This document shows positions 20,519 to 52,382 of a stretch of DNA of 59,554 bases, in pieces. Position 1 is the stretch's first letter. Each line of letters begins with the position of its first letter. This DNA is from a virus, in the IMG/VR virus record IMGVR_UViG_3300045988_097246. The stretch is one strand, 5' to 3'. A program made the position numbers and the translations under genes. Under the pieces are notes generated by a model. That model did no database searches, was not told where the DNA came from, and was given only the letters and a program-made list of their open reading frames with translations.

Positions 20519-20547
20519 GGGAACCCTCCTTTCTTATTGGTAACTTC

Positions 20548-41249: not shown

Positions 41250-41420
41250 GTGTACGACGAAGATTTAAGAGAGCGATTACTCTCACGGGAACAAATACAA
41301 AAATTAGACTTAGTAACTCAAACAATATTGTTTAGCGTTATTGAGGATGTATTAGAGGAGAGAGAACATGATAAACAATCCTTATCAACAACAGATGATG
41401 ACTTATACGCCGGGTTATAA
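41250..41420 (+). CDS. Possible small acidic protein (56 aa)
   Basis: AAGGAG lies 10 nt before GTG 41250. The ORF overlaps the next gene by 53 nt, so it is uncertain. Confidence 0.3.
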   Translation: MYDEDLRERLLSREQIQKLDLVTQTILFSVIEDVLEEREHDKQSLSTTDDDLYAGL

Positions 41421-41892
41421 TGCGTATCCGTACAACCCGATGCAAAGATTTCAGGAGCAGCAGTTACCGCAACAGCCAGTTCAACAAGTACCACAACAGC
41501 AGAATTTACAGATACAAGCAGGGATAAATGGCAGAATGGTGGCAGCAGTTGAACAAATTGCGGCTAATGATGTACCTATGGACGGCTCAGTTGCATTTTT
41601 TCCTAAACAGGATTTAACAGAAATATACGCAAAACAATGGGGTGCAGACGGCTCAATAAAAACAGTCGTGTATAAGCCTTATACAGAGCCTAAAAACAGT
41701 CAAGGCATAAATAATACAGAAAATATTGAAAACTTGAAAATTGACCTATCAGACGAAAGCACAGCGGTATTTATGCAGAAGTTTGATGAGATTTTTAATA
41801 AATTTGACGAGTTAGAAAACAAAATGTGTAAAAGTGCTACTTCTCAAAGGAAAACTTCGACTTTAAAAAAGGAGGGCGGTGTAAATGAATAA
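41368..41892 (+). CDS. Gln/Pro/Tyr-rich protein of unknown function
   Basis: GAGGAGAGAG RBS. The N-terminal ~45 aa are mostly Q/P/Y/N/M (NPYQQQMMTYTPGYNAYPYNPMQRFQEQQLPQQPVQQVPQQQNLQ). Confidence 0.6.
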   Translation: MINNPYQQQMMTYTPGYNAYPYNPMQRFQEQQLPQQPVQQVPQQQNLQIQAGINGRMVAAVEQIAANDVPMDGSVAFFPKQDLTEIYAKQWGADGSIKTVVYKPYTEPKNSQGINNTENIENLKIDLSDESTAVFMQKFDEIFNKFDELENKMCKSATSQRKTSTLKKEGGVNE

Positions 41893-42115
41893 TCAGATTA
41901 TGCAGATGTTAAATCAGATTAAAAATATAAAAAATCCAAAAGAAGCCGCTATGAAAACATTAGAGCAAGCGGCAAATCAAGGAAATCCAATGGCAAAAAA
42001 TATGTTGCAGAAAATAAACAGCGGTGACATGAGCGGAGCACAGCAGATACTTGGCAATTTTATGAATGAGCAAGGATTAAATATACAGGAAATTCAAAAA
42101 CAAATTCAAAAATAG
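41885..42115 (+). CDS. Small Asn/Gln/Met-rich helical protein
   Basis: ATGA-type overlap with the previous gene; 76 aa. Confidence 0.55.
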   Translation: MNNQIMQMLNQIKNIKNPKEAAMKTLEQAANQGNPMAKNMLQKINSGDMSGAQQILGNFMNEQGLNIQEIQKQIQK

Positions 42116-42191
42116 TACATATTAGGGTTTTGTCCGGACAATAAAAACCAGTTCCCTATTTTGTAAATAAATTAAATGGAGGTAAACTAAT

Positions 42192-42971
42192 ATGTTTAAC
42201 AACGGAGTTAGCCTTGCCGATATTGCGGCAGTAACAGGCAATAACAGAAACAATGACGGTATGTGGGGAGACGGAGCATGGTGGATTGTCATTCTTCTTA
42301 TTTTCGGCTGGGGTGGTTTTGGTAACAACGGCTGGGGTAACGGTAATGGAATGGGTTCTACTGCCGCCGCTTATACAGACAGTGCTATTCAGCGTGGATT
42401 TGATAATCAGGCTGTTGTTTCAAAACTTGATGGCATTTCTAACGGACTTTGTGACGGTTTCTATGCTATGAACAACAGTATGCTTACCGGCTTTAATGGT
42501 ATTAACACAAATATCATGCAGACCGGCTATGGCATCCAGCAAGCTATTAACGCTGATACAGTCGCTAATATGCAAAATACAAATGCTTTACAGTCACAGA
42601 TTGCTAACTGCTGCTGTGAGACGAGAGAAGCCATCCAAGGTGTAAACTACAACATGGCAACTAACACTTGTGCTTTGCAGAACACAATGAACAATAATAC
42701 AAGAGATATTATTGACAGCCAGCAGGCAGGAACAAGAGCAATCCTTGACTTCCTGACAAATGACAAGATTGCAACCTTACAGGCAGAGAATAACGATTTG
42801 AGAAGAGCTGCTTCACAGGATAGACAGAACGCACTTCTGACTTCTGCCATGAGCACACAGACAAATCAGATTATTGATGCAGTAAGACCTACACCGGTCC
42901 CTTCGTTCCCGGCTTCTAACCTTTATGGTTACGCATATGGATGTGGTTGCAATACAGGATGTGGCTGCTAA
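42192..42971 (+). CDS. Membrane-anchored Asn/Gln/Gly-rich protein with Cys-rich C-terminus
   Basis: GGAGGT RBS. TM segment GAWWIVILLIFGW followed by GGFGNNGWGNGNG. A long N/Q/T-rich region contains a CCC. The protein ends GYAYGCGCNTGCGC. Confidence 0.65.
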   Translation: MFNNGVSLADIAAVTGNNRNNDGMWGDGAWWIVILLIFGWGGFGNNGWGNGNGMGSTAAAYTDSAIQRGFDNQAVVSKLDGISNGLCDGFYAMNNSMLTGFNGINTNIMQTGYGIQQAINADTVANMQNTNALQSQIANCCCETREAIQGVNYNMATNTCALQNTMNNNTRDIIDSQQAGTRAILDFLTNDKIATLQAENNDLRRAASQDRQNALLTSAMSTQTNQIIDAVRPTPVPSFPASNLYGYAYGCGCNTGCGC

Positions 42972-43239
42972 TGAAAGAAGAATATGAAGATTTTGATTTT
43001 TTGATAGTAATTCTTTTATATATGGCATTGGTGGAAAAAACTTAACTAAAAAAATAAAAGCTTTCAAAAAGGCTTAAAACAATAAAGTATCTTAATTAAG
43101 CTTAACTTGTTTTTAATTTGGCATTAACGAATTAAAACAAGATTTAAACGAGATTATGTCTGCTAAGCAGTATTACTTACAAACACAAAGGGCAGGCTAT
43201 AATGTTTGCCCTTATTTTTATGAAAGAGAGGTAAAAATA

Positions 43240-43659
43240 ATGGAAATAACAGGAATTGCGTTACAAACAGTTGCCGCCGGAGAAGATGTTGCATTTACAG
43301 AAACACCGGTATGCGGTAGCAAATGTATAGTCCACAGACAGGGAAGCGGAATTATCAAGTTAAGAGGTATTACAAATCAGTGCAAGGCTAGATTTTTAGT
43401 ATCTTATAGTGGAAACATTCAGATACCTACAGGCGGTACAGTTGAAGCTATTTCGCTTGCTATTACAGTAGATGGAGAGCCTTTGCAGTCAACAAGAATG
43501 ATTGTAACACCAGCCGCAGTTGAGAATTTCTTTAATGTATCAGCACAGGCATACGTTGATGTGCCTTGTGGTTGTTGCAGTACAGTAGCGGTGCAGAATA
43601 CATCAGCACAGGCTATTGAAGTACAAAATAGTAACTTAATCGCAGTAAGGGAGGCTTGA
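43240..43659 (+). CDS. Beta-rich Cys-containing protein (possible C1q/TNF-like jelly roll, as in BclA C-terminal/exosporium domains; unverified)
   Basis: GAGAGGTAAAAATAATG RBS. A hairpin at about 43187-43215 argues against the upstream ATG 43156. The sequence shows an alternating hydrophobic pattern. Confidence 0.55.
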   Translation: MEITGIALQTVAAGEDVAFTETPVCGSKCIVHRQGSGIIKLRGITNQCKARFLVSYSGNIQIPTGGTVEAISLAITVDGEPLQSTRMIVTPAAVENFFNVSAQAYVDVPCGCCSTVAVQNTSAQAIEVQNSNLIAVREA

Positions 43660-43663
43660 TGAT

Positions 43664-44326
43664 ATGCATAAATGGGCTAAACAGATAATGGAATGCGTCA
43701 AGGCTAAGGTTGACGGAATTGGAATTGACAATTTTGAGGGGCAGAACCTTGACGATTTAAAGGATTTTACAGAAATAGCGAAAAACATAGCTTGCTTTGA
43801 TAAGGATTACAGAATTGTTGAAGCTATGGAAAAGTCAGAAGATAATGAGGATATTATGCGTATGCTTGAACAGTACGAAGATTATCCGGACAGAAGATAC
43901 TATGACGCTTACCGCTATGCAAACGGCAGATTCGCCCCTAAAGGTCGTGGAACACGCAGAGGATATGAAGAACCGCCATATTATCATATGTACCCTGAAT
44001 ACGACGAAAGAGAGCGTATGAGAGACATGGATAGGGATGATAGAGGAAAGATGTATTACAGCGAACCTGCAAGCAATGTGGGTGGTAGCAATAATATGTC
44101 AAGAAACTACTCTGAAAGCAACTATGACAGGGCAAAGCGTAACTATACAGAAACAAAAGAGTTACACAAAGGGAACACTCAGGAAGATAAAGAGCATAAG
44201 ATGAAATCCCTTGACGGATACATGAAAGAGTTGTCAACAGACATTACACACTTGCTCGGTGACATGACCGCAGAGGAAAAAAATCTTTTAAGAACAAAAC
44301 TTAGTACGCTTGTTTCTAAGATTTGA
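43664..44326 (+). CDS. Tyr/Arg/Asp/Glu-rich protein of unknown function
   Basis: 220 aa. The central region reads RRYYDAYRYANGRF...RRGYEEPPYYHMYPEYDERERMRDMDRDDRGKMYY. Confidence 0.6.
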   Translation: MHKWAKQIMECVKAKVDGIGIDNFEGQNLDDLKDFTEIAKNIACFDKDYRIVEAMEKSEDNEDIMRMLEQYEDYPDRRYYDAYRYANGRFAPKGRGTRRGYEEPPYYHMYPEYDERERMRDMDRDDRGKMYYSEPASNVGGSNNMSRNYSESNYDRAKRNYTETKELHKGNTQEDKEHKMKSLDGYMKELSTDITHLLGDMTAEEKNLLRTKLSTLVSKI

Positions 44327-46010: not shown

Positions 46011-46011
46011 A

Positions 46012-46044
46012 ACAAAAAGAGACTTTTTACAGTCTCTTTTCTTT
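46012..46044. terminator. Bidirectional terminator between convergent units
   Basis: A-run, AGAGACT-TTTTAC-AGTCTCT, T-run. Confidence 0.7.
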
Positions 46045-46675
46045 ACCAAAATTCATTCTTTTTATTCTTAATATAAATGTGAAAGCGTATTTTATTGCTT
46101 TCTAAAAGCGTTTGTTTTGCTTCTTCAAAAGTTAATTTAACTCTTTTACCTGCTAAACGCTCAGGCTCTAAATTGTTTAATATTTTTTGAACTTTTTCAT
46201 TATCTAATGCTGCATAAGCATAACCTTGAAATCTAATGTTATGTTTTTTTAAAAGCAAACGAATCACATCTTCATATCGTTTTTCTTTAATTATAACATT
46301 TATTTCTTCTAAAGAAATGGTATTTTCAGATTTAAAACCTAAACCATCTGTCGAATACATTCCTGCATCGTCTTTTTCTAAAGTTAAATAAAAATTTGTA
46401 TTTTCTTTCTCTAAGTAATAATATTTATCGTTTTTGAGTTCATAATTAAAAATATTTTCATGCTCTTTAAAAAATTTATGGCAAGTTATCCCATACACAT
46501 TAGAGTACAGATAGCCGTCTTGATGCGTTCCAGGAACGCAAGCCTTTAACCATTTTGGCACTTTACTTTCTGAAATTTCTTCGTACAATGTGCGTCCTTC
46601 TAAAATGTACACTTTACCATTGTACTCCATTTCGCTGTATTCGACGCCGTTATACTCCACCAAATTTTTCCACAT
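46043..46675 (-). CDS. Hypothetical protein (210 aa), last gene of the minus-strand operon
   Basis: AAAGGTGG RBS 5 nt before ATG 46675. Confidence 0.6.
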   Translation of the reverse strand: MWKNLVEYNGVEYSEMEYNGKVYILEGRTLYEEISESKVPKWLKACVPGTHQDGYLYSNVYGITCHKFFKEHENIFNYELKNDKYYYLEKENTNFYLTLEKDDAGMYSTDGLGFKSENTISLEEINVIIKEKRYEDVIRLLLKKHNIRFQGYAYAALDNEKVQKILNNLEPERLAGKRVKLTFEEAKQTLLESNKIRFHIYIKNKKNEFW

Positions 46676-46734
46676 AATAACCACCTTTTTAACCTTTCAT
46701 TTTTAATTATATCTTTTATAGTGATGTTTTTCAA

Positions 46735-46905
46735 TCACCAAAAAATTATATTTCCTTTTTTATCTACATTATAATGCCACCATTTGCCCGATTGATACAT
46801 AATGCAAACATTACCGTTTTCGTCAATCCATGTTTTTTCGATTTCACCATGTTCCCAAGTATCAAACTGGGAACGGTGGAAATTGTAAAATTGCTTTGCC
46901 GTCAT
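46735..46905 (-). CDS. Small Trp-rich protein (56 aa)
   Basis: AAGGGGG RBS. Translation: MTAKQFYNFHRSQFDTWEHGEIEKTWIDENGNVCIMYQSGKWWHYNVDKKGNIIFW. Below the ORF-track cutoff. Confidence 0.5.
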   Translation of the reverse strand: MTAKQFYNFHRSQFDTWEHGEIEKTWIDENGNVCIMYQSGKWWHYNVDKKGNIIFW

Positions 46906-46921
46906 ATAATTGCCCCCTTTT

Positions 46922-47161
46922 TTAATAAATAAATATAGCGGTGTAAAATCCGCGGCATTCTGTTATATGATTTTTACATAATTTACGAATTTCGTTTATA
47001 ATTGCAAATGTCTCTTTTGACGGATAAGGTCCCTCATAATCCGTATTTATACGCAATGCTGGGACATCTATCCCGTGCCCTTTTGCGTTGTAAACTGTGA
47101 TAAATTCCGCATTATATCCCGCTGTATATAGTTTTTTCTGTAATCTTTTTAATTTATTCAT
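46922..47161 (-). CDS. Hypothetical protein (79 aa)
   Basis: AAGGAGG lies 8 nt before ATG 47161. Confidence 0.55.
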   Translation of the reverse strand: MNKLKRLQKKLYTAGYNAEFITVYNAKGHGIDVPALRINTDYEGPYPSKETFAIINEIRKLCKNHITECRGFYTAIFIY

Positions 47162-47238
47162 GTTTTTTGTCCTCCTTAATTTTTTCAAAGCAAGCCGGGG
47201 AATTGAACCCCGAAAATGCTGGTCTTGCTAAATCTTTC

Positions 47239-47634
47239 TTAATAATTCCAAACATCTAAACCATATCTGCTTTTTATATATTCTTTAAGTTCTTTTGTGG
47301 GATTTACATATTTATCACGTCCAACTCTCTCGCCGCCCGGGCATCGTACATAATAATCATACCCGCTTTTGTACTGCTCCACACTTAAATCACTAGAAAT
47401 TGTAAATCTGTATTCGATACCTTTTTTACTCGTAAATCTTCCGTTAATCTCGGTTTGGAACTCAGTTTCTTTTCTTAAAATTTCGATAGCCTCCTGAGTT
47501 GTGTGGTCTCTGTACCAAACCCACGGCTTGCTATATGCCGCGTCAAGTGCATACGGTTCTTGATTTTGTAATAAATAAGCTCTGATTTCTTCAGCTTTTA
47601 AAGAAACGTTTTCATAATTTCCCACTTTTGTCAT
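47239..47634 (-). CDS. Hypothetical protein (131 aa), first gene of the minus-strand operon
   Basis: AAAGGTG RBS 6 nt before ATG 47634. Confidence 0.6.
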   Translation of the reverse strand: MTKVGNYENVSLKAEEIRAYLLQNQEPYALDAAYSKPWVWYRDHTTQEAIEILRKETEFQTEINGRFTSKKGIEYRFTISSDLSVEQYKSGYDYYVRCPGGERVGRDKYVNPTKELKEYIKSRYGLDVWNY

Positions 47635-47683
47635 AATGTTCACCTTTTCAACCTTTCTTATTTGCTTTCCTTATGTTGTATAT

Positions 47684-47712
47684 ATAATAACACAAATATT
47701 GGTGTATGTCAA
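47684..47712 (-). promoter_or_regulatory. Leftward promoter of the minus-strand operon
   Basis: On the minus strand: TTGACA, 17 nt, TATTAT. The spacer is itself the palindrome at 47690-47705. Confidence 0.55.
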
Positions 47713-47727
47713 CACAAAAAGTAGTGT
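47690..47727. promoter_or_regulatory. Two ACAC-N8-GTGT operator-like palindromes
   Basis: ACACAAATATTGGTGT (47690-47705) and ACACAAAAAGTAGTGT (47712-47727). Confidence 0.55.
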
Positions 47728-47745
47728 AAATTAAAAATATTTTTA

Positions 47746-48124: not shown

Positions 48125-48457
48125 ATGAGCAAAACTATGACTAAAGAACGAAGAAAGCAAATCTATGACATGACTAGAGGGAAGTGCTTTTATTGCGGTT
48201 ATGACATTGATTTAGAAAACTTTCATGTAGACCATTTTATCCCGAAAGCCAAGGGCGGGAAAATGAGGGAAAATCTTGTTCCTGCTTGCCCCCAATGTAA
48301 CATGATAAAAGGTGACAAAAGTATAGAGGAATTTAGAAGAGTTATTCTGAATTATCTTCATACGGATACCCATGTTATGATGGTTGATAAATATATGACG
48401 ATTGTTAGAAGACCCATCAAGTTTTATTTTGAAAAACGAAAATTTCTAAAAAAATAG
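48125..48457 (+). CDS. HNH endonuclease
   Basis: CFYCG...HVDHFIPKAKGG...N.VPACPQCN..K. Confidence 0.8.
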   Translation: MSKTMTKERRKQIYDMTRGKCFYCGYDIDLENFHVDHFIPKAKGGKMRENLVPACPQCNMIKGDKSIEEFRRVILNYLHTDTHVMMVDKYMTIVRRPIKFYFEKRKFLKK

Positions 48458-48697
48458 TACAACTCAACAACAGCTTTAAACTTATAAACTCGAATTTCTG
48501 TATAATTATATAATGTGCGTTTTTATAGTTAAAAATTCACAAGACTTTAATGCTATTCATAGTGTTTTATATAAGTTTTGCCTAAAAAACATACTATTTT
48601 TATACAAAAATTTGAGTTTTCTGATACACCATACAAGCATCTGTTATCTGTTACTGTTATATCAAAGAATTAAACTCTTAGATAAAACTACAGTATT

Positions 48698-48808
48698 AGC
48701 CAGTAAAGTATATTAAGCATAAATATATATATAAATACAGCCAGTATAGTATATTATAAATATATAAATTATATTAAACACATATAAAGCCGGTATGTAG
48801 ATTATATA
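48698..48808 (+). repeat. Three direct repeats AGCCRGTA(N)AGTATATTA in an AT-rich non-coding region
   Basis: Repeats at 48698-48715, 48739-48756 and 48788-48808, spaced 41 and 49 bp apart. Confidence 0.7.
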
Positions 48809-48836
48809 TATAAAACAAAAAAATATATTTAGGGTA

Positions 48837-48865
48837 TTGACAGCATATAAATTTAAGTGTATAGT
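48837..48865 (+). promoter_or_regulatory. Sigma-70-like promoter upstream of the small terminase gene
   Basis: TTGACA, 17 nt, TATAGT. Confidence 0.5.
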
Positions 48866-48996
48866 AAACGCATAAAATTTAATAACTTAGCTGTCTAGCA
48901 CTTGTAAGAGATATATAAACACATGTATAGAGTATGTGTAGAATGTATATCTTTGCAGGTGCTTTTTTATTTATATAACATACTGGAGGTGAAAAG

Positions 48997-50232: not shown

Positions 50233-50610
50233 ATGACAAACAAAGAAAAGTATGCGGAAGATTTATACGATATCTTTTTAAACAGTTTTGGAGTGGATGA
50301 AGAAAATAAACCTTTTCGGTGCGTTGAATCGTGTGGTGGACAATGCCAGTTTTATCACAACGAAATAACTTGTAAAACACTTGCAAAACAGTGGCTTGAT
50401 GAAGAATATAAAACAGATTGGTCGAAAGTACCTGTCGATACTCCGATTCTTGTAAAAGACAGTGAATTTGCAGAATGGCGGCGTAGATACTTTGCAGAAT
50501 ATGAAAACGGAAAAGTTTTCGCATGGGCTGATGGCTTAACTTCATGGAGTGCGAGAGGCGCTAACCGTGTGAGTTGGGAATATGCCCGATTATATGAAGA
50601 TAATAAATAG
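50233..50610 (+). CDS. Hypothetical protein
   Basis: GGCGGTGG RBS before ATG 50233; 125 aa. Confidence 0.5.
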   Translation: MTNKEKYAEDLYDIFLNSFGVDEENKPFRCVESCGGQCQFYHNEITCKTLAKQWLDEEYKTDWSKVPVDTPILVKDSEFAEWRRRYFAEYENGKVFAWADGLTSWSARGANRVSWEYARLYEDNK

Positions 50611-50767
50611 AACTGAGGTGATAAAGTATGGCAATAAGAGCACCAACAATTTAAAGTGAAACATTTTTTGAAACTTTTTTAACATTTGTATTTTAATTCA
50701 TATCTTTTGTACTTCATAAAAATATTACATATCACATCCGCAAGGCAATAACAGTCTTGCGGAATAA

Positions 50768-50839
50768 TGGGGTATCGCCAAGAGGTTAAGGCATAGCACT
50801 TTGACTGCTACATCATGGGTTCAAATCCCATTACCCCAG
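50768..50839 (+). tRNA. tRNA-Gln (anticodon TTG)
   Basis: Hand-folded cloverleaf. Acceptor TGGGGTA/TACCCCA. Anticodon stem TAGCA/TGCTA with loop CTTTGAC. T arm ATGGG-TTCAAAT-CCCAT. Confidence 0.85.
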
Positions 50840-51093
50840 TTTGGCAAGATATGCCATCTTTGTTTTTCTTCTTGCAAAATCGCGGAGAAAAACTCCTTTC
50901 CCACACTAGCGGAATGCTGTTAAGAGCCATCGCACGGCTCGGTGTGGTTGTTCGGGTGTCTATCCCACGATGCCCGAACTTACATACTTTTTCCGTACTG
51001 GACTAATGTAGTTCCATTACAAATTTCACACCCCCATAACACACAGGTGCTTGCATACCATCTTAAAAGCCTATACAGAGGTGTATGCAATTT
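50840..51093 (+). ncRNA. ORF-free, GC-richer, hairpin-rich spacer between tRNAs (candidate structured RNA)
   Basis: Examples of stems: GTTCGGG...CCCGAAC (about 50960-50989), GGAG-AAAAA-CTCC, and TTGCATACC...GGTGTATGCAA. Confidence 0.3.
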
Positions 51094-51165
51094 TGGCATA
51101 TAGTTCAGTGGTAGAACGACAGACTGTTATTCTGTAGGTCGTAGGTTCGATACCTACTATGCCAG
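51094..51165 (+). tRNA. tRNA-Asn (anticodon GTT)
   Basis: Acceptor TGGCATA/TATGCCA. D arm GTTC-AGTGGTA-GAAC. Anticodon stem ACAGA/TCTGT with loop CTGTTAT. T arm GTAGG-TTCGATA-CCTAC. Confidence 0.9.
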
Positions 51166-51192
51166 TTAAACAGAGTAAGAATGGTGTAGAAT

Positions 51193-51217
51193 GGTGGTTC
51201 GAGCCCACCTGTGAGCA
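51193..51217 (+). ncRNA. Orphan tRNA T-arm-like hairpin
   Basis: GGTGG-TTCGAGC-CCACC followed by TGTGAGCA. There is no room for a full tRNA upstream. Confidence 0.4.
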
Positions 51218-51283
51218 TAACTCTAGCGAAAAAGGTACTCACCGCTTCTTTCTTAATGTTCTTGGCGATACAAAGAAAATTCG

Positions 51284-51373
51284 GGGCGAACGGCAACGAT
51301 TGGTGGTGTTGCGGCAGACTGTAAATCTGTTCCCATGTGGTAAACAATAGAGGTTCGATTCCTCTTTCGCCCA
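51284..51373 (+). tRNA. tRNA-Tyr (anticodon GTA), long variable arm
   Basis: Acceptor GGGCGAA/TTCGCCC. Anticodon stem GCAGA/TCTGT with loop CTGTAAA. T arm AGAGG-TTCGATT-CCTCT. The variable region is unusually long. Confidence 0.75.
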
Positions 51374-51376
51374 TTT

Positions 51377-51460
51377 GCAGATATGGTGTAATGGTATCAC
51401 AGTAGCTTGCTAAGCTATCCAGCAGAAATGCTGTCAAGGTTCGAATCCTTGTGTCTGCGT
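51377..51460 (+). tRNA. tRNA-Ser (anticodon GCT)
   Basis: Acceptor GCAGATA/TGTCTGC. Anticodon stem GTAGC/GCTAT with loop TTGCTAA. Variable arm CAGC-AGAAAT-GCTG. T arm CAAGG-TTCGAAT-CCTTG. Confidence 0.85.
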
Positions 51461-51569
51461 TATGTCAACACTTGTGCAGAAACCAATGTCGGCAATGGAA
51501 GAACAGAAACTAGCTGTTGACATTATTAAAAAATGCCCACGCAAAAATACTAGGTACGACGCGGGTGGT

Positions 51570-51726
51570 AGATAGTGGCGGAATAGGTAAACGCTTAAGC
51601 ATAAGGCAACCACGCTTTGGTTAGAAAAAGGTTATCGAATTAAAAAGGCGATAAATGAACCTGAAACGGTGTTACCCGTTGTGAGAAGTCGTTGCTATGT
51701 GTGGTGCAAATCCACACCTATATACT
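51570..51726 (+). ncRNA. Degenerate tRNA-Leu-like element with a ~100-nt insertion
   Basis: Near-canonical class II D arm TGGCGGAATAGGTAAACGC. Acceptor-like pairing TAGATAG/CTATATA (6 of 7). T-arm-like GTGTGG-TGCAAAT-CCACAC. No canonical anticodon arm. Confidence 0.35.
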
Positions 51727-51794
51727 TATCCTCAAAACTATCGAGGATAGCTGATAAACAGGCTTTTTAAAATTCCTCATGACAATATGAAGAA

Positions 51795-51836
51795 GAGCAG
51801 ATGGTGCTTTATCCGGTTCGACCCCGGACTACTCTT
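51795..51836 (+). ncRNA. tRNA-like acceptor/T-arm minihelix
   Basis: AGAGCAG...TCCGG-TTCGACC-CCGGA-CTACTCT. The acceptor pairs at 6 of 7 positions and the T loop is canonical. D and anticodon arms are absent. Confidence 0.4.
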
Positions 51837-51863
51837 TAATAATTTAAGTGAGAGGTAAGAAAG

Positions 51864-52382
51864 ATGGATAATTTGGAACAACACAAAATACTTTTACAGC
51901 AGATACATGATACATATATCAAGAAAAATCATGATTATGGCGATAGCTTTAGTCGTTCATTTAAGAAATATGGATTAGTAGCGGCTATGGTTCGCATGGA
52001 AGATAAATGGAACAGACTTGATAATATGGCAACAGGAGCAGAACAGAAAGTTGCTGACGAAACTATAAGAGATACGCTGTTAGACCTTGCTGGATATTGC
52101 GTTATGACAAGGATGGAACTGGACAGAGAGAAAGACAACGCAAATCAAAAGGCATTTGAAGAACAGGTTCGGGATGAATATACTGAAGTTTTTGGAGAAG
52201 ATAACGAGAACAAAAATGAAGGAACAGATACTTCTAATAAAACATCAGCGGAAAAGAGTTCTATTGATGTAGGCAAGGTAATGGCTTTACATAATGCCAA
52301 ATGGTCGCAAGCAAAGATTGCTGATGAAATGGGGTGTTCACAAAGTATGGTTTGTAAGATTATCAAAAAATATAAACAGTGA
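51864..52382 (+). CDS. DUF1599/MazG-like all-alpha nucleotide-binding domain fused to a C-terminal HTH
   Basis: KKNHDYGDSF...MVRMEDKWNRL...DTLLDLAGYCVM matches the DUF1599 pattern. The C-terminal WSQAKIADEMGCSQSMVCKIIKKY looks like an HTH. Confidence 0.5.
   Translation: MDNLEQHKILLQQIHDTYIKKNHDYGDSFSRSFKKYGLVAAMVRMEDKWNRLDNMATGAEQKVADETIRDTLLDLAGYCVMTRMELDREKDNANQKAFEEQVRDEYTEVFGEDNENKNEGTDTSNKTSAEKSSIDVGKVMALHNAKWSQAKIADEMGCSQSMVCKIIKKYKQ

Follow-up and report, generated by a model that had tools for sequence, protein, structure and literature searches.

Candidate RNA modules between the tRNA genes of a temperate phage

Do the stretches between the transfer RNA (tRNA) genes of a phage only separate these genes, or are they RNA modules in their own right? 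The question is raised by a viral DNA of 59,554 nucleotides (nt), the IMG/VR record IMGVR_UViG_3300045988_097246, which was analysed at its full length and is referred to here as the window. At positions 50,611–51,863 it contains an island of four tRNA genes (Gln, Asn, Tyr and Ser), in which tRNA-Gln and tRNA-Asn are separated by spacer 1, tRNA-Asn and tRNA-Tyr by spacer 2, and tRNA-Ser is followed by spacer 3. An initial annotation, made from the sequence alone, had seen in the roughly 780 nt outside the tRNAs a candidate for one large structured RNA, possibly of the GOLLD or ROOL type and otherwise new. The latter was borne out: spacer 1 and part of spacer 3 have covariation-supported pairs and belong to no Rfam family. 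A single large RNA covering the ~780 nt is absent, the longest structured unit being 253 nt (spacer 1).

The structured stretch after tRNA-Gln

The minimum free energy (MFE) of spacer 1 is −75.3 kcal/mol (z = −4.26 on the + strand and −2.43 on the − strand), and none of 200 shuffled sequences folds as well. The island had been described as hairpin-rich throughout; this holds for spacer 1 and not for spacers 2 and 3, which as wholes give z = +0.3 and −0.9 respectively. We aligned 20 distinct homologues of spacer 1 from the window clade, taken from IMG/VR and from gut metagenomes (mean identity 94%; the clade is ~94–95% identical overall). The consensus fold calculated by RNAalifold has ten helices, including H1, H2, a three-way junction, H4, H5, a weak H8 and H9/H10 (Table 1). 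It comprises 69 pairs and 1376 pair cells, 99.3% of which are standard pairs, G–U pairs making up 10%. Eight pairs have changed on both sides, compared with 1.8 ± 1.1 in shuffled alignments (0 of 500 reached this number) and 0–2 in slid controls. Paired and unpaired columns are variable equally often (27% and 26%), and pairing is nonetheless kept. Examples are the tip of H2, which has a different sequence and is still paired in L002, L006 and L069 (L numbers denote homologous loci), and the tip of H10, which is rebuilt in L003 and L005, where a tRNA-Trp stands instead of tRNA-Asn. Owing to the G–U pairs, fewer of the same pairs are intact when read on the − strand (89.6%), and therefore the constraint acts on the + strand RNA. 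The spacers are not the product of plain decay.

A second, distant clade was reached through the gene for a MazG-like protein, which precedes the island in many relatives and retrieved 80 loci. In the distant loci (L091–L118) this protein is 67–73% identical. As in the window clade, their islands start with tRNA-Gln (UUG); they continue with a tRNA-free gap of 147–701 nt, and Rfam detected no known family in these islands. Within the gaps lies a sequence remotely homologous to the central part of spacer 1, consisting of (C)CUCCUUUC, the junction (CCAC-UAG-hairpin-CUG-UUAAG-hairpin-GGUGG) and hairpin H4. The distant clade does not share the outer parts of the window spacer, H1 and H2 on the 5′ side and H5 to H10 on the 3′ side. 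An nhmmer search of the distant loci with full spacer 1 gave a marginal match to H4 only; the homology is clear by sequence reading and from the covariance model. This model of the core, R1, covers 105 positions. It matches once per island, always just 3′ of tRNA-Gln, and detected no further copy in the window and none in some 55 other searched loci that do not have the core.

Among 23 distinct core sequences from both clades, 93.9% of the cells are paired and 10 of the 27 pairs have changed on both sides. Cells changed on both sides number 69, compared with 28.2 ± 4.3 in shuffles (0 of 500), and the covariation score is 0.377 against at most 0.077 in slid controls. The stem of H4 has been rebuilt from one clade to the other (GUUCGGGUGUC/GAUGCCCGAAC in the window versus AUCAUGCGUC/GGCGCAUGAU in L093), three pairs being changed on both sides and six on one side. 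Its loop, UAUCCCAC, is identical in 21 of the 23 sequences. Unpaired CUCCUUUC is present in 22 of them, the distant-clade form being CCUCCUUUC; it resembles the anti-Shine–Dalgarno tail of Firmicute 16S rRNA. Within the window clade, compensatory changes in the junction are found in L005 and L018 (CG to UA and AU to CG), partially in L069, and in L012 (CG to UA); the junction also shows compensatory changes between the clades. In its second hairpin (5 base pairs (bp), loop of 7 nt) the 3′ strand is contiguous with the 3′ strand of the outer helix, and the stems sum to 12 bp in both clades (7 + 5 in the window, 6 + 6 in the distant clade). As modelled, this geometry resembles an acceptor/T-arm minihelix of tRNA. 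With good confidence we regard the core as a real structured RNA element.

In the distant clade, each tRNA-free gap (L093:5317-5543 and others) has complementary ends, UCGCCAC..GGACG pairing with CGUCU..GUGGCGG. The distal strand, at the very end of the gap, repeats the junction 3′ strand directly (ACCGUC-N-GGUGG, or ACCGUCC-GGUGG), and the minimal variant of 147 nt (L095:5070-5216) has the distal copy only. This suggests either an alternative helix that closes over a long range, with as much as 700 nt inside it, or the footprint of a cassette insertion in a tRNA-like 3′ end.

Two further matches of the junction were noted. Its 5′ strand CCACACUAGC (50901–50910) is complementary, with one bulge, to GCUAUGUGUGG (51694–51704) in the T-arm of element X (see below), ~800 nt downstream; the distant clade does not keep this match, which is therefore probably a coincidence. 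A match of 12 nt between the junction and the variable arm of tRNA-Ser lies within chance expectation, and descent of the junction from tRNA-Ser was kept as a lead only.

Element X and the exchange of cassettes

Spacer 3 contains a second candidate element, termed X, with the plan of a tRNA scaffold in which an insert takes the place of the anticodon/variable region. The scaffold is near-invariant, and at least five unrelated insert types of 50–96 nt occur within the window clade. Inserts differ again in the distant clade (82–191 nt) in the same scaffold. Among 13 scaffolds, pairing in the acceptor stem is 97.8% and two of its pairs co-vary; for the T stem the figures are 100% and one pair. 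Covariation with the distant clade is seen in the acceptor stem (UAGAUAG/CUAUCUA versus UAGGUGG/CCACCUA) and in a T-stem pair (U–A versus A–U).

X is accompanied by other tRNA-like pieces. The presence of tRNA-like fragments had been noted in the initial annotation, and they are real: T-arm-like hairpins were located at 51193–51209, 51699–51717 and 51812–51828. The last lies in the region of a tRNA-like minihelix 27 nt upstream of the start (51864) of a gene encoding a DUF1599/helix-turn-helix (HTH) protein; the minihelix is also present in L001, where it follows ROOL and a tRNA-Tyr. For X, the spacer-1 junction and the minihelix alike, ARAGORN made no call at default settings and the Rfam tRNA model gave no match at E ≤ 10. 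Between X and the minihelix, a hairpin followed by a short stem and a U5 run could be a weak terminator or a processing site, judging from its sequence. At the start of spacer 3, module A comes after whichever tRNA is the last before it, which is tRNA-Ser in the window and tRNA-Asn in L002 and L010.

The arrangement of these pieces was compared in 37 IMG/VR loci, which were retrieved with the two genes that flank the island, the downstream one being the DUF1599/HTH gene. The samples that yielded the close relatives were all from the human gut. The first 558 nt of the island (leader, tRNA-Gln, spacer 1 and tRNA-Asn) are constant, with 93–98% identity in every close relative whichever gene lies upstream. 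In L003 and L005, a tRNA-Trp (CCA) replaces tRNA-Asn (L003:4516-4589, L005:3873-3946), and identity is 90–93% over the first ~515 nt. A single wobble-base change makes tRNA-Gln read CUG, not UUG, in L008 (2463–2534). Downstream of the constant part follows a mosaic of cassettes, which carry tRNA-Tyr, -Ser, -Leu (UAA) or -Trp or are tRNA-free blocks of 190–740 nt, with break points at tRNA 3′ ends. Spacer 2 and tRNA-Tyr form one cassette, common to L004 and L007 only. The island thus evolves by cassette exchange at tRNA and tRNA-like boundaries, and ROOL is one such cassette in some sister phages. Scans with exact patterns of spacer 1 twice returned the same ~20 IMG/VR contigs, and also 13 gut-metagenome contigs; the single GTDB match (Peribacillus) was judged a chance match.

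A cassette of 307 nt that has no counterpart in the window contains another tRNA-like element. The copy in L005 (4338–4455) scores 40.7 bits with the Rfam tRNA model; its acceptor stem, D-arm and T-arm are good, its anticodon/variable region contains ~45 extra nt, and ARAGORN overlooks it at default settings. The same type occurs in L004, L007, L009, L010, L013, L027 and L029.

Known RNA families, tRNA genes and genomic setting

The whole window was scanned with Rfam 15 at the gathering threshold, and positions 50400–52100 were scanned again at E ≤ 10 with permissive filters. Both settings returned only tRNAs and chance-level matches in the window. Even at E ≤ 10, GOLLD, ROOL, HEARO, transfer-messenger RNA (tmRNA), group I and group II introns, ribozymes, T-box, 6S, signal recognition particle RNA and RsaE were unmatched, and the suggested membership of GOLLD or ROOL has to be dropped along with HEARO, tmRNA and the introns, which had been named as further families to check. 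For tmRNA, ARAGORN and Rfam gave no call at default settings, and lowered thresholds gave spurious permuted calls only. A YrlA match (RF02553; 18.2 bits, E = 1.3, gathering score 69) lies over tRNA-Asn and not over X, and no Ro60/TROVE domain was found in the four flanking open reading frames (ORFs). No self-cleaving ribozymes (HDV-like, hammerhead, twister and others) were detected in the window by Rfam models, the theta-type HDV-like ribozymes being covered only via the Rfam HDV models. Three distant-clade loci carry type II hammerhead ribozymes (RF02276, 62–68 bits; L091:721-786, L092:811-879 and L110:468-536, all on the − strand) on the opposite strand ~3.5 kb upstream of the MazG-like gene; none is present in the window. 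Tandem or direct repeats of the ToxI-like or CRISPR-like kind were not found.

Twelve relatives were scanned in the same way, and the guess of a GOLLD/ROOL-like context proved apt: a complete ROOL RNA is located in the homologous island of sister phages. With a gathering score of 99.1 bits for ROOL (RF03087), two loci serve as positive controls. In L001 (4185–4780, +) ROOL scores 334.7 bits over model positions 1–574 of 574 and lies between tRNA-Leu and tRNA-Tyr, abutting the latter; in L069 (8089–8682, −) it scores 334.8 bits over the full model. An nhmmer search with L001:4185-4780 detected ROOL in L001, L008, L045, L053, L062 and L069, and gave no match in the window. These loci represent about four contigs (L001/L053, L008/L045, L062 and L069) of the ~33 contigs with spacer 1; ROOL is therefore a presence/absence polymorphism among near-identical phages. 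The region of the L001 cassette (island positions 699–1294) has no counterpart in the window, whose island is the ROOL-less version of a mosaic array of tRNA and noncoding RNA (ncRNA) cassettes. ROOL and GOLLD are phage RNAs found near tRNA islands and possibly co-transcribed with them (PMC5737381, PMC12286853). The window shares this context, a phage island beside tRNA genes, which alone does not make it a member. A location of ROOL inside element X was ruled out for L001: of the 5′ flank of X, no more than the first 13 nt stand before ROOL, and the 3′ half of X is found in another place.

ARAGORN calls exactly the four tRNAs that had been recognized by eye. None has an encoded CCA. The Rfam tRNA model confirms three of them (Gln, Asn and Ser; 59–73 bits). 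tRNA-Tyr has an unusual D region and is judged atypical because its best Rfam score is only 35 bits, obtained with the tRNA-Sec model and below the threshold of that model; the sister phages with ROOL have a different, better-scoring tRNA-Tyr (L001:4776-4859, 55 bits). When ARAGORN was run on the window with introns allowed, with lowered thresholds and in mitochondrial mode, in order to reveal further tRNAs, it produced only poor calls such as a mismatched 'tRNA-Met' at 51744–51836, none of which was accepted as a genuine tRNA. The spacers are richer in G+C than the window, as had been seen (44.3%, 41.9% and 40.4% for spacers 1, 2 and 3 versus 35.6%), and only 2% of 253-nt windows match spacer 1 in this respect. 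The absence of credible ORFs was also upheld, as each ORF of at least 30 amino acids overlaps a tRNA or lacks a Shine–Dalgarno sequence. Indels of 2 nt inside spacer 1 among the relatives exclude coding there. The leader preceding tRNA-Gln is 157 nt long, AT-rich and conserved despite differing upstream genes. Its hairpin is kept in the alignment of relatives, with G–C changed to A–U or G–U in L002 and L018, and a weak promoter-like site lies at 50679–50706.

Between the upstream gene and this leader we noted a mini-ORF of eight codons (50629–50655; ATG GCA ATA AGA GCA CCA ACA ATT TAA) for the peptide MAIRAPTI, with a strong Shine–Dalgarno sequence (GAGGTG) 7 nt upstream. It is kept in all relatives, including those with a different upstream gene; the changes are synonymous (ATA to ATT, GCA to GCC), a GTG start in L002 and one conservative replacement of A by V. 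From its sequence MAIRAPTI could be a leader peptide, and we take its IRAP to recall the motifs of arrest peptides.

PHROGs and Pfam searches identified genes for the major head protein, tail proteins, a large serine integrase, an anti-repressor-type regulator, the large terminase and the portal, and almost all genes are on the + strand. The contigs of the relatives are 53–60 kb long, and the window is therefore essentially a whole temperate siphovirus-like genome. GenBank phages include no close relative of it; matches were of tRNA length only. As the portal homologues all belong to Firmicute phages (best named match, a Clostridium innocuum phage with 35% identity), a Firmicute is the probable host. 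Of all stretches free of + strand ORFs, the longest (46011–47745, 1735 nt) contains the − strand ORFs 46043–46684 and 47239–47643 and is followed by sequence of only 21–24% G+C (~48400–48900); it is probably a divergently transcribed lysogeny-control region. The tRNA set had been linked to a cluster of proteins rich in Gln, Asn, Tyr and Ser at 41–44 kb. This link is weak: two of the four ORFs in 41368–44326 are rich in Gln and Asn, with 28–31% of the four residues together (Gln 12.6%, Asn 13.9%) versus 20.8% genome-wide, whereas the remaining two show no such enrichment. Pfam matched none of the four.

Table 1. Features of the tRNA island in window coordinates.
Feature	Position	Strand	Basis and remarks
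Leader hairpin CCGCAAG-N11-CUUGCGG	50738–50762	+	Sequence; 5 nt upstream of tRNA-Gln
tRNA-Gln (UUG)	50768–50839	+	ARAGORN; Rfam tRNA 63.9 bits; no encoded CCA
Spacer-1 RNA, 253 nt	50840–51092	+	Exact bounds, tRNA-Gln 3′ end and tRNA-Asn 5′ end; hairpin series and three-way junction
Hairpin H1, 5 bp, then U-rich tract	50842–50856	+	Window clade only; flagged terminator-like
Hairpin H2, 12 bp	50862–50893	+	Window clade only
Spacer-1 core, ~100 nt	50881–50982	+	Covariance model R1 match, 109 bits, E = 1.6e-23
Unpaired CUCCUUUC	50893–50900	+	MFE and consensus folds; abuts 5′ end of three-way junction
Three-way junction	50901–50947	+	Outer helix CCACACU/GGUGUGG, 7 bp; hairpins 50908–50918 and 50924–50940
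Hairpin H4, 11-bp stem, loop UAUCCCAC	50950–50979	+	Loop 50961–50968, contains unpaired UCCC
Spacer-1 3′ domain, clade-specific	50995–51090	+	H5, C-rich tract, H9/H10
Hairpin H5	50995–51020	+	Compensatory rebuilding in L069
Unpaired C-rich tract	~51027–51046	+	Spacer-1 3′ domain
Hairpin H9/H10	51051–51090	+	Ends 2 nt before tRNA-Asn
tRNA-Asn (GUU)	51093–51166	+	ARAGORN; Rfam tRNA 73 bits; no encoded CCA
Spacer 2	51167–51283	+	No fold signal, z = +0.3
T-arm-like hairpin GGUGG-UUCGAGC-CCACC, canonical	51193–51209	+	Sequence; in spacer 2
tRNA-Tyr (GUA), 90 nt, class II, atypical	51284–51373	+	ARAGORN; no encoded CCA
tRNA-Ser (GCU)	51376–51460	+	ARAGORN; Rfam tRNA 59.1 bits; no encoded CCA
Module A, 69 nt	51461–51529	+	Hairpin 51485–51525
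Element X, tRNA-like scaffold	51563–51731	+	Closing/acceptor stem, D-arm-like hairpin, insert, T-arm-like hairpin
X closing/acceptor stem, 13 bp	51563–51575 with 51718–51731	+	Sequence comparison
X D-arm-like hairpin, GG-containing loop	51576–51595	+	Sequence comparison
X insert, ~100 nt, in place of anticodon/variable region	51596–51698	+	Sequence comparison
X T-arm-like hairpin GUGUGG-UGCAAAU-CCACAC	51699–51717	+	Sequence comparison
Hairpin AUCCUC-N9-GAGGAU, then short stem and U5 run	51728–51768	+	Hairpin 51728–51748, U5 51764–51768; conserved in most relatives
tRNA-like minihelix, acceptor-like stem and T-arm UCCGG-UUCGACC-CCGGA	51793–51836	+	Low-threshold ARAGORN 'tRNA-Met', poor; alignment

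Readings of the island and comparison with known systems

From its sequence we hold it somewhat probable that the island is a phage tRNA operon whose inter-tRNA stretches are RNA modules, released by RNase P and RNase Z, with the core acting as a CU-rich small RNA that binds Shine–Dalgarno sequences. Transcription would start in the AT-rich leader and yield one transcript with the order Gln, spacer 1, Asn, spacer 2, Tyr, Ser, spacer 3. Host RNase P would cut at the tRNA 5′ ends and RNase Z, which in Firmicutes processes tRNA precursors that lack CCA, at the 3′ ends. The cuts would free the inter-tRNA pieces as discrete RNAs, and the spacer-1 junction, element X and the minihelix before the next gene may be further cut points of the same two enzymes. 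In the 253-nt Gln–Asn RNA the core would display two unpaired CU-rich motifs, CUCCUUUC beside the junction and UCCC in the H4 loop, both conserved across the clades, and these may pair with the Shine–Dalgarno regions of mRNAs as in RsaE, LhrC and RNAIII of Gram-positive bacteria, whose unpaired UCCC or CU-rich motifs bind ribosome-binding sites (PMC8383071). X would be a tRNA scaffold that stabilizes and delimits an exchangeable RNA insert. We have moderate confidence in the predicted release by tRNA processing, and low to moderate confidence in the predicted Shine–Dalgarno binding of the core.

The complementarity of the core to Shine–Dalgarno sites appears to be generic. CTCCTTTC occurs twice on the + strand: the copy in the core is the only one in transcript sense in the window, and the copy at 20526, beside a − strand ORF, is probably the Shine–Dalgarno sequence of that ORF read on the opposite strand. 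The complement GAAAGGAG, in a typical Shine–Dalgarno context, is found 12 times on the + strand, and AAAGGAG 23 times.

A number of observations weigh against the proposal of released modules. The CU-rich motifs were singled out after the fact, and intragenomic complementarity revealed no specific trans target, the longest matches being 12–13 nt and near chance save for the generic Shine–Dalgarno ones. In the two-clade alignment of the core, the number of pairs changed on both sides (10) does not beat that in shuffles (9.1); the diversity consists of two clades plus intermediates, and many of the cells changed on both sides are inherited from few events. For the distant clade RNAalifold prefers the distal partner for the junction 5′ strand, and the three-way junction as drawn appears secure for the window clade only. 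Spacers 2 and 3 as wholes have no excess folding energy, and the promoter-like match in the leader is weak. The acceptor stem of the window X has a C to A mismatch at 51721, and in L001 X is rearranged; X is therefore dispensable or decaying in some genomes. The window minihelix also lacks the 4 nt (UAGA) that complete a 7-bp stem in relatives.

Some of these observations would be expected if the spacers were decayed or recombined tRNA genes without a function of their own, their structure being inherited and their conservation due to recent ancestry and recombination. Remnants resembling T-arms and acceptor stems occur throughout, the content is heavily mosaic, the window clade is highly uniform, X and the minihelix show the defects just described, and spacers 2 and 3 fold with ordinary energies; the 12-nt match to the tRNA-Ser variable arm also hints at descent, though it is within chance. 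Decay had been named at the outset as the outcome that would refute a structured RNA, and it holds in part, as much of the material looks tRNA-derived. It does not account for a structural constraint kept across two phage clades. Two pairs in one 7-bp helix were rebuilt by compensation within the clade, and across clades H3b and H4 were almost entirely resubstituted while the H4 loop and CUCCUUUC stayed fixed; invariant motifs foreign to tRNA are not expected of neutral relics. The position after tRNA-Gln was conserved though the flanking protein is only 67–73% identical, and the X scaffold was retained while its insert was swapped at least five times. We consider decay unlikely, and only a little less so the alternative that the elements act in cis alone, guiding RNase P, RNase Z or exonucleases or attenuating the tRNA operon and the downstream mRNA, with the excised pieces being degraded. 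Such a role would suit the 12-bp minihelix geometry of the junction, the location of X and the minihelix directly ahead of the following gene, the resemblance of H1 with its U tract and of the hairpin with U5 at 51728–51768 to weak terminators, the retention of H9/H10 upstream of the next tRNA even after that tRNA was exchanged, and the complementary gap ends of the distant clade. It leaves unexplained the cross-clade invariance of unpaired CUCCUUUC and of the UAUCCCAC loop as well as the long structured inserts in X, and ordinary tRNA operons are processed without such elements. Both explanations are disfavoured because the unpaired motifs are invariant across the clades.

That the island is a divergent or degraded member of ROOL or GOLLD is most improbable. 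Both families are known near phage tRNAs, and sister phages do have ROOL in their version of the island, but neither RF03087 nor RF01998 nor any other large RNA family matched the window, the sister-phage ROOL found nothing in it, the L001 cassette is missing from it, and its longest structured unit is far smaller. At the available sensitivity, membership is refuted. It is just as hard to believe that the spacers encode small proteins. There are ORFs of 30–63 amino acids on both strands, including one of 37 amino acids from 51462, but apart from their overlap with tRNAs or lack of Shine–Dalgarno sequences, the relatives differ by 2-nt indels and wholesale replacement of blocks, and the substitutions keep base pairs and not reading frames. 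A bolder extension of the module proposal, which we regard as doubtful, more so than decay, is that the junction is a tRNA minihelix mimic that directs RNase P to cut at its exact 5′ edge and so frees an upstream RNA, consisting of H1, H2 and a tail and ending in ...CUCCUUUC-3′OH, which would copy the 3′ tail of Firmicute 16S rRNA, with X as a natural cargo scaffold and the whole locus as a tRNA-punctuated array of exchangeable ncRNAs. If this were true, the CUCCUUUC-ended RNA could compete with ribosomes for Shine–Dalgarno sites, or it could be a decoy for factors or toxins whose target is the 16S rRNA 3′ end. The phages would use X to express and exchange variable cargo RNAs, ROOL taking the same island slot in some genomes, and the array of cassettes would constitute a phage locus of a new kind.

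ROOL and GOLLD are abundant and elaborate phage RNAs of unknown function for which adjacency to tRNAs is the one consistent clue. In this type of locus, an array punctuated by tRNAs, ROOL is seen to be one of the exchangeable cassettes, beside at least two smaller conserved modules, and the near-identical natural phages with and without ROOL offer a ready comparison for studies of its function. The core provides a testable idea, the mimicry of Shine–Dalgarno or anti-Shine–Dalgarno sequences by a phage RNA released via tRNA processing. Should the modules be inert, the locus would still document the evolution of tRNA islands by cassette exchange at tRNA-like boundaries. The alignments and model searches indicate that the window holds members of at least two RNA families without an entry in Rfam 15, and in the literature on tRNA-like scaffolds in phage tRNA arrays and on anti-Shine–Dalgarno mimic RNAs we found no described equivalent.

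Like the RNAs of the island, ROOL and GOLLD are phage or prophage ncRNAs located in or beside tRNA arrays and probably co-transcribed with the tRNAs (PMC5737381, PMC12286853). Some GOLLD RNAs embed a tRNA (PMC12990946), whereas here a tRNA-like fold embeds another RNA. ROOL and GOLLD are about 580–800 nt long; the units of the island measure 100–250 nt, with no evident pseudoknotted ornate architecture or multimer interface, and would represent a family or families distinct from both. Phage T4 makes two small non-tRNA RNAs, RNAC and RNAD, from its tRNA region, the role of which is unknown (PMC3014915). Spacer 1 and X likewise lie between or after tRNAs on the + strand with strand-specific structure, but T4 infects E. 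coli, of another host phylum, no homology to its RNAs is expected, and expression and stability of the island RNAs are only inferred. RsaE/RoxS, LhrC and RNAIII share with the core the unpaired C/U-rich motifs complementary to Shine–Dalgarno sequences, one apical (UCCC) and one single-stranded. The island RNA differs in being phage-encoded and flanked by tRNAs in place of a promoter and terminator of its own; it matches no small RNA in Rfam, and its pairing is predicted.

For element X the nearest parallels are RNAs built on a tRNA plan. The arms of YrlA follow the order stem, V, T, acceptor and D (PMC4201824), while those of X follow the order D, insert and T, as in tRNA. X retains the acceptor stem, a GG-containing D-arm and the T-arm, with other RNA in place of the anticodon arm, and in its general plan it resembles tmRNA; it has no credible tag ORF, and no G3–U70 pair was noticed in its acceptor stem. 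The same design reportedly underlies the engineered tRNA scaffolds for the expression of recombinant RNA (Ponchon and Dardel, 2007), of which X would be the natural counterpart.

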